Shown here: piece by piece, positions 50,529-55,475 of the stretch
Layout: each line of letters starts with the position of its first letter
Position numbering within the stretch: the first letter of the stretch is position 1
Assembly: GCA_036396795.1 (NCBI GenBank)
Contig: DASWKF010000103.1
Location: forward strand, 4,170 to 68,169
Reading direction: 5' to 3'
Length of the DNA stretch: 64,000 nucleotides
DNA from: Gammaproteobacteria bacterium
GTDB taxonomy: Bacteria; Pseudomonadota; Gammaproteobacteria; Steroidobacterales; Rariloculaceae
Program-made: the position numbers and the translations under genes
The notes under the pieces: model-generated
Told to the model about the DNA's origin: nothing
What the model saw: only the letters and a program-made list of their open reading frames with translations
The model's database searches: none

Positions 50529-51497
50529 ATGACAGGGAATGTGCAACGGCTCCGCCCTTTCAGGGTGACGCTCGCGCTCGTCGGTCTTTTTCTGCTGACG
50601 GGCTGCGCGACGACCGCCAGCCGCGGAAGGGCCGACTCGACAGAGGCTCAGCCCCCATCGACGGAGCAATCGCTCGCTGCCGGCGACGAAGCCGCGCGGC
50701 GCGGGGACTTCGAGCGCGCCCTCGCCTACTACCTGCGCGCAGTCGGAGCGGAACCGACAGTCGAGGGCTGGATCAGGATCGGTGCGGTATCGACGCGGTT
50801 GGGCAACTCGGAGCGCGCCCTGCACGCTTATCTTCAGGTCATTGCGCTCGAGCCGAATCGAGCCGACGCGCTGGAGGGGGCCGGGCTCGAGCACATGGCG
50901 CTCGGAGACGCCGCGGCCGCGCGCGAGCACCTCGCACGAGCGGTCGAGATCGATCCACAGCGTTGGCGCTCACACAACGCTCTCGGCATTCTGGCCGACC
51001 AGGCGGAAGATCACGGCTCGGCGATCGCGCACTACGAGACGGCGCTCGATCTCAACCCCAGATCACCGATGCTGTTGAATAATCTGGGCTATTCGAGGCA
51101 TCTGTCGGGCGACCTCGATCAAGCCGCCCGCGACTTCTATGCCGCCACGCAAGCGGACCCGAGCTACAAGCCCGCCTGGTCGAATCTCGCTTTGGTGTAT
51201 GCCCATCGCGGCCTGTACTCGGAAGCTGTGCAGACGCTCTTGAAAATAGAGGACAAGCCAACGGCGTACAACGATATCGGCTATGTCGCCTTCCAACGCG
51301 GCGATCTGCCTGAATCGGAGATGCTGCTGAGTGAGGCCGTGCGCCTCTCGCCCGTCTATTACGAGACGGCCAACAAGAACCTGGAGTCGGTGCGTGCCAG
51401 AATGCGCGGCCAAACGGACGCGAGCCCCGCACTCGGCAAACCATTTCCAGATCTGATCTCGGGCAGCCTTACCGCCGCCGGACGCGATGGGAGCTGA
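50529..51497 (+). CDS. tadD: TadD-like TPR lipoprotein
   Basis: Lipobox LFLLTGC and at least 5 TPR-like repeats (AL.YYL.A....P......G......G). Confidence 0.75.
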   Translation: MTGNVQRLRPFRVTLALVGLFLLTGCATTASRGRADSTEAQPPSTEQSLAAGDEAARRGDFERALAYYLRAVGAEPTVEGWIRIGAVSTRLGNSERALHAYLQVIALEPNRADALEGAGLEHMALGDAAAAREHLARAVEIDPQRWRSHNALGILADQAEDHGSAIAHYETALDLNPRSPMLLNNLGYSRHLSGDLDQAARDFYAATQADPSYKPAWSNLALVYAHRGLYSEAVQTLLKIEDKPTAYNDIGYVAFQRGDLPESEMLLSEAVRLSPVYYETANKNLESVRARMRGQTDASPALGKPFPDLISGSLTAAGRDGS

Positions 51498-53004
51498 GAT
51501 GCGCAAGGCAGTACGAGCCTCGAGGGGACGGCGGCCTGCGAGGAACCGGCGCGACCGCCGTCGTTGGGTAGCTGCGGCGGGATTGATCTCTTCGCTGGCG
51601 GTCCTCGTGACGGTTTGGTCGACGCAACCGAGATACCGCGCAACCGCAACCCTTCATCTCGCAGGAAAAACATTGCCGCCAGACACGGGGGCCGATGCCC
51701 GCAGCTTCGCTCAGGAGCATTTGCAGGCCAGGCACGGCCGCATGATGGGCTCGCTTCGGCCGCGACGCGAAGTCGGGCTGTCCATCATCGAGGTCGAGAC
51801 CACCACCTCGGGCGCCTCTGAGCGCCCTTCGGTCTCAATCGGCTTCGAGATCTTCGTGGATGACTCGAATCCGCGAGCGGCAGAGCGCGCCACCAGCGAT
51901 GTCGCCGCCGCCTATCTGGAGGATCATCGGCGCGCGACGACAACACCACCTGTTCCAGCCGAGACGCTCGAAGCGGCGCGCGTAGCCTCGAAGAAAGCCG
52001 CCGCCGAGCTCGAACGGCTCGCGCATGAGACGGAGAAGTTCGAGCAAGACAACGCCGCCGGCCTATCGGGAATGGAGGAGTTGAACGCTCAGACGATCGA
52101 GCAATCGGAACGTGAGGAGACGCGCGTCAGCCAGGAGCTGCGCATGCTGGAAGGACGCAGAAACGAGCTCGACCGCGGGTTGCAGGACATGCAGCGTGGA
52201 GCGGCGCAGTTCAGCGTGGACTCCAGTAGAGCCCTGTCCAGCGAGCTGCTCGCAGCGGCACAAGCCCGATGGGCCGTGCTGCGAGGTCTCTACGGCCGGG
52301 AGTATTCGCAAGCAGTGGAGCTCGGGGCGGCGATCAGGGAGGCCGAGGCAGCCGCCAACGATCGCACCAATGCGCTCGTGGCGGAGCTGGAGGAAGCCAG
52401 GTCCGAGTTCAATCGTCTGCAGAGACTGCATCCCATCGACCACCCCGATGTCGTTCTTCTAGCCCATCGCGTTTCCGCATTGGAAGTGGACGTCGCCGAG
52501 ACACGCGTTACGGGTCTGACGAACCGGGAGCAAGCGTACATAGAGGATCTTGCTCGGGAACGAGGTGCGATCGACGGTCAGATCAATGAGCTGCGAGACC
52601 GCCTGGCGGCGCTGCAGACGCAGAGAGCCGACCGCGAGTCACTTGTCCAGCAAGCACCCGTACTGGAGCAACAGTACGCCATTCTGCAGGAGCAACTGAC
52701 GAACGCTCGGATGCGGCACGAGACGATGAACGCCGAGTACGCTGCTTTGCAGGCTGTGATGGACGGCGCGCGCGCTGAAAGGCCGGGAGAGCTGTCACTC
52801 GCAGCCGGGGGGCAGACTAGGCGCTTGATCATGAGTGGGCCAGCCGTCATCGGCGGAGTGCTCTGCCTGCTGGGCTTCCTGACGGTCATGTGGCTCATCG
52901 GACGCATCGAGAGCGCGCATCGCACGATAGACGGCGCGGAGCTGGTCGCGAGATTGCAGGGGCAGCCACCGCTCGCCGAGATCCCAACGTTGCAGGTTCA
53001 TTGA
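51487..53004 (+). CDS. Polysaccharide co-polymerase (Wzz/GumC/chain-length-determinant)-like membrane protein
   Basis: N-terminal TM (WVAAAGLISSLAVLVTVW) followed by QPRYRATATLHL (Wzz-like start). Then ~350 aa of coiled coil rich in E/R/A/L and a C-terminal TM (VIGGVLCLLGFLTVMWLIG). The start is 51487 (overlapping tadD) or 51499 (1 nt after its stop). Confidence 0.7.
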   Translation: MGAEMRKAVRASRGRRPARNRRDRRRWVAAAGLISSLAVLVTVWSTQPRYRATATLHLAGKTLPPDTGADARSFAQEHLQARHGRMMGSLRPRREVGLSIIEVETTTSGASERPSVSIGFEIFVDDSNPRAAERATSDVAAAYLEDHRRATTTPPVPAETLEAARVASKKAAAELERLAHETEKFEQDNAAGLSGMEELNAQTIEQSEREETRVSQELRMLEGRRNELDRGLQDMQRGAAQFSVDSSRALSSELLAAAQARWAVLRGLYGREYSQAVELGAAIREAEAAANDRTNALVAELEEARSEFNRLQRLHPIDHPDVVLLAHRVSALEVDVAETRVTGLTNREQAYIEDLARERGAIDGQINELRDRLAALQTQRADRESLVQQAPVLEQQYAILQEQLTNARMRHETMNAEYAALQAVMDGARAERPGELSLAAGGQTRRLIMSGPAVIGGVLCLLGFLTVMWLIGRIESAHRTIDGAELVARLQGQPPLAEIPTLQVH

Positions 53005-53011
53005 GGTCCTC

Positions 53012-53856: not shown

Positions 53857-54735
53857 ATGTACGAGAAGTTCTACCACCTCGATCGTAGTCCCTTTTCGCT
53901 GTTGCCCGACCCGGCGTTTCTTTTTCTATCACGTAAGCATGCCATGGCATTGACACTGCTCAAGTACAGCCTGATGAGCAAGCATCCGTTCACAGTCATT
54001 GCGGGAGAGGTGGGGGCCGGTAAGACCACGCTGGTCAACAGGCTTCTCGACGACCTCGATGACCGGCACACGGTAGGGCTGATCAACTTCACGGATCCAG
54101 GTGTCACCCAACTATGGCCCTGGATCCTGCACGCCTTCGGCCTGGGCCACTCCAAGAGGAGCGTGGTCGAAATGTACGACGACTTCCTGACATTTCTCTG
54201 TGCCGGCTATGAGCGCGAACGCACGTTCGTCCTGATCGTCGACGAGGCACAGAATCTCGGCCCGACGGCACTGGAGAATCTGCGCATGCTGTCGAACGTG
54301 AATGCCAGAGAGACGTTGTTGCAATTGATTCTCGTCGGTCAGCCGGAGTTCTGCGAAACGCTCAAACGCCCGGATTTTCGCCAGCTCAATCAACGAATCT
54401 CCGTCTTCTATCGTCTCAATCCTCTCTCCAAGAACGAAACGCAAGCGTACATAGACCATCGGCTCGGAGTCGCCGGCGGACGGCCGGGCACGTTCAGCGC
54501 CAAGGCGATCTCGCTGATCTGGGCCGAAAGCGATGGGATTGCCCGAAGGATCAATACGCTGTGCGACCTCGCCCTCGTCTACGGCTTCGCGAGCAACAAA
54601 CCCATCATAGAGGGGGATCTGGTGAGCGAGATGCTTGCTGATCGACGAGACCTTGCGGTCGAGACGGAAATGCCCTCAGAGATCCCAGCAACTTCCGCTC
54701 GGCCGCGTGCCGTCCATGATCAGCGAAGGCACTAG
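53857..54735 (+). CDS. ExeA/GspA/MshM-like AAA ATPase (no peptidoglycan-binding domain)
   Basis: MYEKFYHLDRSPFSLLPDPAFLFLSRKHAMALTLLKYSL...FTVIAGEVGAGKTTLVNRLL...VLIVDEAQNL...LQLILVGQPEF closely parallels the ExeA/MshM N-terminal ATPase. Confidence 0.85.
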   Translation: MYEKFYHLDRSPFSLLPDPAFLFLSRKHAMALTLLKYSLMSKHPFTVIAGEVGAGKTTLVNRLLDDLDDRHTVGLINFTDPGVTQLWPWILHAFGLGHSKRSVVEMYDDFLTFLCAGYERERTFVLIVDEAQNLGPTALENLRMLSNVNARETLLQLILVGQPEFCETLKRPDFRQLNQRISVFYRLNPLSKNETQAYIDHRLGVAGGRPGTFSAKAISLIWAESDGIARRINTLCDLALVYGFASNKPIIEGDLVSEMLADRRDLAVETEMPSEIPATSARPRAVHDQRRH

Positions 54736-54740
54736 AATCC

Positions 54741-55475
54741 GTGAAGCGTCACTCGATCTTGCTTCTGATTGCCTGCTCGCTGGTCTCGCAAGCGCGCGCA
54801 GGACTCCTTGAAGGTCACGAAGCGTTCGCTGTCGGCGATTTCGATCGCGCCTACGCTGAATTTCTACCGCTTGCAGGAAGGAACAACTGGATCGCCGCTT
54901 ACTATCTGGGCGTAATGCACATGGAGGGTCTCGGCGTCGCGGCAAACGCAGAGAACGGCGCACGCTGGTTGAGGCGAGCGGCAGATAGCGGGCACGCCGG
55001 TGCTCAACTTCGCCTCGCCACGGCCTACGAAAACGGCGAAGGCGTTGCGCAAGACTATCGGGCGGCCGCTCGATGGATGCTGGAGGCTGCACGCGGCGGG
55101 AACGCGGACGCCCAATATTATCTCGGGCAATACTATCGTGACGGCAGAGGAATCGTGCAGGATGACGCACAGGCGTATGAATGGATCCATCGGTCGGTGG
55201 AATATGACATTTCACACGAGCGACTTCTGGATGCGTTCCTGTTTCTCGGCGCGGCGTGGGAGTGGGGCCGTGGCCTGCGCCAGGACTTGGTTGAGGCGTA
55301 CAAGTGGTTCTCGCTCGCCGCGAGCTATTCGCCGAACGACGCGCGATTGCACGACGAAGCGAGCCGCGCGCTGGGCGCGCTTCGGATCAGAATGAACGTA
55401 GCTGAGCTGGAGGAGGCAGGACGGCGAGCCTACGTATGGCAGCAAGAGAGCATCAGATGTACAGGCCCCAATTGA
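54741..55475 (+). CDS. Secreted Sel1-repeat (SLR/TPR-like) protein
   Basis: Signal peptide MKRHSILLLIACSLVSQARA. At least 5 Sel1 repeats (A.YYLG.MY..G.GV..D...A..W...AA..G...AQ). Confidence 0.85.
   Translation: MKRHSILLLIACSLVSQARAGLLEGHEAFAVGDFDRAYAEFLPLAGRNNWIAAYYLGVMHMEGLGVAANAENGARWLRRAADSGHAGAQLRLATAYENGEGVAQDYRAAARWMLEAARGGNADAQYYLGQYYRDGRGIVQDDAQAYEWIHRSVEYDISHERLLDAFLFLGAAWEWGRGLRQDLVEAYKWFSLAASYSPNDARLHDEASRALGALRIRMNVAELEEAGRRAYVWQQESIRCTGPN

Follow-up and report, generated by a model that had tools for sequence, protein, structure and literature searches.

Tad pili are widespread organelles of adhesion and biofilm formation, and the assembly of their secretin and its alignment with the inner-membrane platform are less well understood than in other type IV filament systems. 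We analysed a stretch of 64,000 nucleotides (nt), here called the window, from a Gammaproteobacteria bacterium (Steroidobacterales; Rariloculaceae; contig DASWKF010000103.1). In this window one tightly packed, complete Tad/Flp operon (39065-55475, + strand) is closed by four genes, P1 to P4, which encode a co-polymerase (PCP-2)-like protein, a P-loop protein of the BY-kinase family, a short GspA/ExeA-type AAA+ ATPase and a Sel1-repeat protein (Table 1). An original prediction, made from the letters alone, had seen in these genes an envelope-spanning scaffold repurposed for the CpaC secretin or the pilus. The literature searched revealed no connection between Tad systems and co-polymerases, BY-kinase-like proteins or ExeA-like proteins, and the Tad operon with its recruited module of polysaccharide-export type is a conserved, undescribed and mechanistically suggestive arrangement.

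The module resembles several described systems in part. The trio of exosortase loci (TIGR03007/TIGR03018/TIGR03015) consists of the same three proteins as P1-P3, in the same order and with the same architectures. However, the window module misses the curated cut-offs of all three NCBIfam models, and whereas the loci of the trio hold exosortase, asparagine synthase, glycosyltransferase, Wzy and PrsT, the window module follows tadD. In comparison with the trio, P1 is ~80 amino acids (aa) shorter and has no extra C-terminal hydrophobic segment, P2 is without the Tyr tail, the EX2RX2R arginines and the strict Walker A' motif, and the Sel1 gene is extra. The predicted fold of P1 resembles Wzc, the capsule PCP-2a of Escherichia coli, and the sequence of P2 resembles CapA/CapB of Staphylococcus aureus, in which the membrane and kinase-like portions are likewise separate proteins. 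In Wzc and CapB a C-terminal Tyr cluster is autophosphorylated by means of the catalytic DxD Asp and the EX2RX2R ring contacts, none of which is intact in P2; the base in CapB catalysis is the second Asp of the DxD motif, and EX2RX2R and the Walker A' Arg form octamer contacts (PMC2422856). The window contains no Wza partner, and among the products of the operon CpaC alone is a large outer-membrane channel.

EcpK of Myxococcus xanthus is a BY pseudokinase that is proposed to serve, by binding directly, as a scaffold for the co-polymerase EpsV in exopolysaccharide (EPS) synthesis (PMC12004946). Like P2, it is a stand-alone BY-kinase-like protein without a Tyr tail or intact catalytic motifs. 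It differs in having none of the Walker motifs and in lying in a Wzx/Wzy cluster, whereas the window P2 keeps Walker A and B, shows an erosion that varies among orthologues, and is encoded, next to an added GspA-like ATPase, in a Tad pilus operon. GspA/ExeA ATPases and a bitopic partner take secretins through peptidoglycan (PMC4098917), and short GspA forms without the periplasmic region exist beside longer partners (PMC9239104). P3 has a homologous ATPase domain and a secretin encoded in the same operon, but it shares that domain only, with no transmembrane (TM) segment, no periplasmic domain and no GspB homologue beside it. Because its nearest relatives come from polysaccharide loci and not from secretin loci, the link to secretins is one of analogy, not of membership. 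Lastly, P2 and TadZ/CpaE are both P-loop proteins of the MinD/ParA superfamily, and one operon encodes the two. P2 lies on the BY-kinase branch and is no substitute for CpaE, which is present as well (Table 1).

We favour, with even confidence, the reading that P1-P4 are a fixed accessory module of the Tad/Flp machine of this lineage and not a stray polysaccharide locus. The dedication to Tad that was originally predicted is backed by synteny, by Tad-only clades of P2 and P3 and by purifying selection. Genomic context was read, in contig-sized neighbourhoods, for 11 Tad-type loci (among them the P0006, P0027 and P0146 contigs, L001, L004, L008/L012, L013, L093, L096 and L097) and for about a dozen polysaccharide-type loci. 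The Tad-type tier was defined by a P3 identity of at least 60%, or a P2 identity of at least 41% over full length; in the polysaccharide-locus tier P3 is 54-57% identical, or P2 ~30-41%. The order tadD-P1-P2-P3(-P4) was found in all 11 Tad-type loci as far as the contigs reach, with P1 identity across them down to 29%, and none of the 11 has an exporter, glycosyltransferase, exosortase, flippase or polymerase nearby. Within the 64-kb window, Pfam scans of essentially all substantial open reading frames (ORFs) detected neither an exosortase nor a Wza-type exporter, flippase, polymerase or glycosyltransferase, in agreement with the original prediction; a motif scan found no PEP-CTERM-like C-termini among the window ORFs, and no Rfam family was matched in the window.

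The order and spacing of the four genes are as first described: the P1 ATG lies 11 nt inside tadD, or, if the second ATG at 51499 is used, 1 nt past the tadD stop, and the gaps between the following genes are those of Table 1. The 11-nt overlap is repeated in L001, L002, L003 and the P0006 and P0146 contigs (five contigs, three further loci). This layout shows a co-transcription geometry for P1-P4, with P1 evidently coupled translationally to tadD. A promoter and terminator scan of 50000-56200 gave nothing better than shuffled sequences, and no terminator was seen after P4.

These neighbourhoods bear on the possibility that P1-P3 still serve an exopolysaccharide made and exported by genes elsewhere, their co-transcription with tad coupling pili and matrix. 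We consider this, the main alternative, unlikely. The exporter, flippase, polymerase and glycosyltransferase that it calls for are absent from the 11 loci and from the window, and the trios of the sampled polysaccharide loci are always embedded among synthesis genes; a locus elsewhere that lacks its own trio would be unusual. It also leaves the conserved coupling to tadD and the Tad-specific P4 unexplained. Two carrier genome representatives revealed no second, polysaccharide-type ATPase paralogue, in a weak scan that catches 43 of 66 sister-clade sequences (~65%). Nevertheless, the closest relatives of all three proteins outside the Tad context do lie in exosortase polysaccharide loci, in line with the link between this trio and such loci that the original prediction had drawn. 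In the polysaccharide tier (exosortase-type sister loci L005-L007, L010 and L014-L018) the order Wzz-kinase-ATPase (AAA_22) lies inside loci with an EpsH-type exosortase, together with asparagine synthases, glycosyltransferases, Wzy_C and a PrsT-like TPR protein. By NCBIfam the exosortase of L005 scores as XrtD (VPLPA-CTERM type, 583 bits) rather than XrtA. The three trio proteins of L005 and L010 (co-polymerase, kinase and ATPase) score just under the NCBIfam cut-offs of the XrtA system, which suggests an XrtD-associated branch of the trio that the models do not cover.

The trees of P2 and P3, which are neighbour-joining trees without support values, separate the two contexts. That of P3 contains a Tad-context clade of 55 sequences (the window and P0127-P0180) with no polysaccharide-locus member, and its sister is a 72-leaf exosortase clade; that of P2 has a Tad-only clade of 26, congruent with P3. 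Trees and synteny show a linkage of the module to tad operons that appears both exclusive and ancient. By sequence comparison, its ancestry is that of a diverged branch of the exosortase-locus trio. Sister loci and window score ~255 and 17.6 bits on TIGR03007, ~172 and 118 bits on TIGR03018, and 269-290 and 251 bits on TIGR03015, so that by this measure the divergence is very unequal: the co-polymerase has diverged most, then the kinase, and the ATPase little. The module is rare and confined to a narrow uncultured lineage. The arrangement was found in two of 185,579 genome species representatives, both of them metagenome-assembled genomes (MAGs) labelled Rhodospirillaceae, and in ~54 clusters (90% identity) in metagenomes.

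P1 scored 17.6 bits against its curated model TIGR03007 (cut-off 278.85) and had no Pfam match, Wzz PF02706 included. A query profile of P1 and six database homologues was nevertheless aligned end to end by hhalign with the Wzz-annotated co-polymerases (579-585 aa) of exosortase loci (99.8%, E 8e-30, 482 columns), and the alignment revealed a common tail motif, LQGxPP[LI]AEIP. This homology, tail motif included, counts in favour of a continued role in polysaccharide handling. In the AlphaFold2 model of P1 (predicted local distance difference test, pLDDT, 81.6) an Arg-rich, cytoplasmic N-terminus leads into TM1; next come an alpha/beta base (residues 49-152) and long helices that take up ~270 residues, followed by a strand, TM2 and a short tail. 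Both TM1 (~26-46) and TM2 (~446-476) are supported by a hydrophobicity scan. The cytoplasmic C-terminal tail of ~30 aa ends ...LQGQPPLAEIPTL and presumably resembles the CapA/Wzc linker 'G.P.L..IP'; comparison of the 36-aa tail with PDB chains, for the CapA activator tail, gave chance matches only. The top seven Foldseek matches in the PDB were Wzc or Wza-Wzc, with a probability of 1.0 and a TM-score of only ~0.2, as is to be expected of flexible helical arms. On this model, P1 is a predicted bitopic inner-membrane protein of PCP-2 architecture with a Wzc-like periplasmic fold.

No solved structure was found that matches P1 by sequence, and a P1 profile scan found no relative among the 185,579 genome species representatives; the corresponding metagenome scan added four contigs and no more. 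An exhaustive profile search of 1.84 billion representatives yielded a separate, high-scoring P1-type group of ~20 representatives, mostly of 450-530 aa with some fragments and one of 583 aa, below which the scores fall to hundreds of co-polymerases of 560-600 aa. Since the P1 family is rare and fast-evolving, the breadth of the module was inferred from P2 and P3.

P2 scored 118 bits against TIGR03018 (cut-off 230.65). Its best solved relatives are CapA/CapB (3bfv, 4.7e-12), then BceF and VpsO, with MinD at 9e-4, and its sequence clearly places it on the BY-kinase branch. A second TadZ/MinD was considered as an identity for P2 and rejected on these values (CapB 5e-12 vs MinD 9e-4). The kinase-specific residues, however, are eroded, and within the sequences compared (26 of the Tad clade and 97 polysaccharide-locus relatives) this erosion is confined to the Tad clade. 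It had been predicted that the window P2 keeps Walker A, A' and B and ends without a tyrosine cluster. Walker A (GSGKT) and Walker B (ILIDLPS) are indeed retained; Walker A' is not, as it reads DFNLH instead of DxDxR, and the erosion is wider than the Tyr cluster. The second Asp of Walker A' is replaced by Asn in the window and in three other Tad-clade sequences, and the Arg is present in ~6 of the 26, whereas the 97 relatives have a nearly invariant DxDLR. The Walker A Lys has become T or R in 4/26, and is retained in all polysaccharide-locus relatives; the Walker B Asp has become Asn in 2/26, and is retained in all relatives listed. Of the EX2RX2R arginines, the second is Gln in every Tad-clade P2 and Arg in nearly all relatives, and the first is C, L, F or G in most of the clade and R/K in nearly all relatives.

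The tail completes the picture. The window P2 ends, as the translation bears out, in ...LNRARSRT without a tyrosine cluster, and its sole tyrosines are Y85, Y211 and Y253. Tad-clade proteins in general end at LN[RK] plus a few residues, with no Tyr in 22/26 and one in 4/26, against mostly 1-6 in the relatives. Altogether P2 fails four of five sequence features that define BY-kinases. Because the CapB-type catalytic Asp and the ring-contact residues are lost, the kinase-specific apparatus is gone, as judged by these motifs; in some P2 lineages the nucleotide chemistry has probably gone too, and P2 is likely a pseudokinase scaffold. The lack of a tyrosine cluster is no argument against a polysaccharide role, as EcpK works with EpsV in EPS synthesis (PMC12004946), and BY pseudokinases thus function in polysaccharide pathways.

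The erosion of P2, with Walker A Lys lost in 4/26 and Walker B Asp in 2/26, and the strong divergence of P1 (17.6 vs ~255 bits on TIGR03007) could also be expected of a decaying, functionless remnant of a former polysaccharide locus beside the tad operon. We regard this as hardly credible, and it is largely refuted by selection and synteny. The four reading frames are intact wherever contigs cover them, the P3 motifs are retained in 124/124 sequences, and the gene arrangement is maintained down to a P1 identity of 29%. Ratios of non-synonymous to synonymous substitution rates (dN/dS) between L001 and L004, a pair in which dS is near saturation, were 0.08 for TadB, 0.06 for TadC, 0.18 for TadD, 0.22 for P1, 0.22 for P2, 0.18 for P3 and 0.13 for P4; those of P1-P4 (0.13-0.22) are similar to that of TadD. 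The closest pair, the window and L096, has few substitutions and gave 0.03 for TadC, 0.27 for TadD, 0.30 for P1, 0.56 for P2 and 0.11 for P3. The summary ranges are 0.13-0.30 for P1, P3 and P4 and 0.22-0.56 for P2. The P2 of L004 is without the Walker A lysine, yet it is under purifying selection in the L001/L004 pair. By these ratios P2 is not a pseudogene and appears to be under purifying selection, and the pattern is that of a structural co-polymerase, a kinase apparently turned scaffold and one conserved ATPase.

P3 (292 aa) has as its best model TIGR03015 (251.3 bits; cut-off 324.5), and scores 91 bits with Pfam AAA_22. The window protein has the same sequence as HEX9877811.1, which comes from a 'Gammaproteobacteria bacterium' MAG. 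None of the 124 sequences has lost Walker A or B; in one of them DEAQ reads DEAH. The original assignment to the ExeA type stood, since P3 is a homologue of a genuine GspA: over residues 1-276 it shares 37% identity with the ATPase domain of the GspA from L064, a GspC-GspD-GspA-GspB locus in which the GspA gene lies between GspD and GspB. A hydrophobicity scan found no TM segment in P3, its C-terminal tail is predicted to be disordered, and it has no C39-like or peptidoglycan-binding domain; nor does the window contain a gene of the T2SSB family (GspB). The absence of the peptidoglycan-binding half had been pointed out before, and correctly, but this locus is not peculiar in that respect: the exosortase-type subfamily (275-303 aa) is normally without that half throughout. 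A sequence search for solved structures of the P3 family returned only remote AAA+ proteins. P3 is shown by these comparisons to be a putatively cytoplasmic, short AAA+ protein of the GspA family with intact motifs. Profile searches had been proposed as a check of the whole set; the family assignments hold, with all members of the trio below the curated cut-offs.

The predicted fold of P3 (pLDDT 78.5) matches the switch/loader branch of AAA+ proteins (ORC/Cdc6, MuB, TnsC). This ATP-dependent switch fold would fit a regulatory or sensory device that senses the state of the pilus or envelope and controls the pilus or adhesion through P3 and P2 without a structural part. The P2 family is used for oligomerisation switches (PMC2422856), and the constraint on P2 is relaxed in the closest pair (dN/dS 0.56). 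We think such a device improbable: the module has no output domain (DNA-binding, cyclase or kinase-substrate), P1 has a large structural periplasmic domain of ~400 residues whose length is conserved, and in gene order and coupling the module looks like a set of structural subunits.

Pfam matches four Sel1 repeats in P4 (Sel1, 91.5 bits vs gathering 30.7). It occurs only in Tad-type loci and is absent from exosortase-type loci. Seven orthologues share a conserved signal peptidase I site, AxA|[GD][LI]x[ED]G, and from its sequence P4 is a secreted, soluble periplasmic protein and not a lipoprotein. A lipobox-like motif, LIAC, had brought up a lipoprotein pilotin as a candidate identity; it was rejected, as the Cys is unconserved while the signal peptidase I site is conserved. 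Downstream of P4 the loci vary. In L008 (Rhodospirillaceae MAG, isolate Ww577) a gene with an OmpA domain (peptidoglycan-binding) lies at 11761-12495, directly after the Sel1 gene, and in two further contigs the module is followed by DUF6152 genes; the loci have no conserved fifth gene in common.

The simplest history is a single duplication of an XrtD-like polysaccharide trio, which would have been recruited behind tadD at the 3' end of the tad operon and then joined by the Sel1 gene. In the accessory module that we favour, P1 would form a Wzc-like oligomer, a ring or cage that spans the periplasm from its anchor in the inner membrane. P2, without autophosphorylation, would bind the conserved C-terminal tail of P1 and act there as a scaffold in the cytoplasm, P3 would act from the cytoplasm as an ATP-dependent energy or assembly switch, and P4 may be a periplasmic adaptor that bridges to the wall, TadD or the secretin. 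The module would help to insert or stabilise the CpaC secretin, or to align it with the inner-membrane platform through the cell wall, together with the pilotin-like TadD, whose gene is coupled in translation to that of P1. By analogy, the most likely job is thus the assembly, anchoring or alignment of CpaC, which we hold with less than even confidence. It is favoured because of the GspA/ExeA and Wzc-Wza analogies, and because CpaC is the only large outer-membrane channel encoded here. More specifically, the Wzc-like ring, the dead kinase and the GspA-like ATPase might dock on CpaC in place of Wza and form a trans-periplasmic alignment cage; this picture is tentative, and we consider it possible but rather doubtful. 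If true, it would be the first capsule-export scaffold exapted into a type IV filament nanomachine, and it leaves room for the passage of a polymer through the secretin besides the pilus.

Several points weigh against a module dedicated to the pilus. To our knowledge, all characterised members of the co-polymerase and BY-kinase families work on polysaccharides. P1 retains the whole co-polymerase architecture, which fits continued handling of a polymer as well, and a pseudokinase is compatible with a polysaccharide role, as in EcpK/EpsV (PMC12004946). The EX2RX2R motif and the Walker A' Arg are lost in P2, and therefore a Wzc-like octamer is not assured. Finally, in L075 (Syntrophorhabdales MAG) a polysaccharide locus abuts a tad locus, so adjacency can also mean co-regulation of two adhesion systems, and the two loci standing side by side are in line with the EPS alternative. 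In this contig (1-10900) a tad locus with TadC and two TPR genes, one of them TadD-like, is directly followed by a complete polysaccharide locus that encodes Wza (Poly_export/SLBB), an unassigned 458-aa protein, an ExeA-like ATPase with LysM, a kinase-like P-loop protein, a priming sugar transferase and an epimerase. L075 may be a snapshot of how modules come to adjoin tad operons.

The remainder of the operon is conventional in its Tad/Flp components, all of which were matched by Pfam in the window; Flp_Fap and TadZ_N stay below gathering and are supported by motif and position (Table 1). The flp pilin gene is divergent from the tad operon. Between flp and cpaA, the Response_reg/AraC gene is likely a local regulator, linked to the system by its position only. 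The 447-aa AAA+ ATPase gene lies between cpaA and cpaB and has a 7-nt overlap with the cpaA stop. This protein is not known among the standard Tad components. A sequence search of the PDB gave midasin-like AAA matches, and its N-terminus resembles a MarR-type winged helix; it was considered as a paralogue of P3 and rejected as unrelated. The slot of the 103-aa protein is occupied in orthologous contigs by a gene of 93-95 aa. The first tadE-like ORF (44872-45483, + strand) overlaps tadG by ~130 nt and has its TadE domain from residue 62; its true start is probably an internal Met near 45010.

Table 1. Genes of the Tad/Flp system and of the P1-P4 module, with their positions in the window and the matches or features found for each.
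Gene or feature	Position	Strand	Matches and features
flp pilin gene (55 aa)	37373-37540	-	Flp_Fap 1.3e-6, 28.5 bits (gathering 32.2); motif RG/LTTVEYAV
Response-regulator/AraC-type gene, candidate regulator	38021-38848	+	Pfam Response_reg and HTH_18/HTH_AraC
cpaA/tadV prepilin peptidase	39065-39577	+	Pfam Peptidase_A24, 61 bits
AAA+ ATPase, 447 aa	39571-40914	+	weak Pfam AAA_16, AAA_22, AAA_5
cpaB/rcpC	40945-41751	+	Pfam RcpC, 103 bits
cpaC/rcpA secretin	41817-43403	+	Pfam Secretin 118 bits, T2SS-T3SS_pil_N 77 bits
Small protein, 103 aa	43400-43711	+	lipobox-like LAAC in translation; no family match
tadG and two tadE-like pseudopilin genes	43725-45943	+	Pfam Tad/Tad_C; TadE twice
cpaE/tadZ (MinD/ParA-type)	45968-47143	+	Pfam CbiA, AAA_31, weak TadZ_N
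cpaF/tadA secretion ATPase	47161-48552	+	Pfam T2SSE, 226 bits
tadB and tadC platform proteins	48531-50510	+	Pfam T2SSF in both
tadD TPR lipoprotein	50529-51497	+	many TPR families; lipobox LTGC; TGA stop 51495-51497
P1, co-polymerase (PCP-2)-like	51487-53004	+	505 aa
P2, BY-kinase-family P-loop protein	53012-53845	+	277 aa; gap after P1 of 7 nt
P3, short GspA/ExeA-type AAA+ ATPase	53857-54735	+	292 aa; gap after P2 of 11 nt
P4, Sel1-repeat protein	54741-55475	+	244 aa, GTG start; gap after P3 of 5 nt

Outside the operon, the window holds three NHL/SGL beta-propeller paralogues and a tandem weak DUF1554 pair (19168-20511, - strand; 30428-31699, + strand; 59664-60926, - strand; 58116-59649, + strand), and the tad operon is followed closely by lactonase-like and metallo-beta-lactamase genes. 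The region 20000-24000 has a G+C content of 0.56-0.59 vs ~0.64 and may be of horizontal origin; a serine beta-lactamase-family gene (21268-22755, - strand) and GNAT acetyltransferases are encoded there.

If P1-P4 do belong to the Tad machine, co-polymerases and BY-kinase-like proteins, so far known only from polysaccharide export, would have been exapted into a machine for protein filaments, and P2 would be a natural example of a kinase that became a scaffold. The module would also offer a second, more tractable context in which to study the poorly understood ExeA-like ATPases of exosortase type. If instead P1-P3 still serve an exopolysaccharide, the locus would represent a hard-wired genetic coupling of pilus and matrix production.

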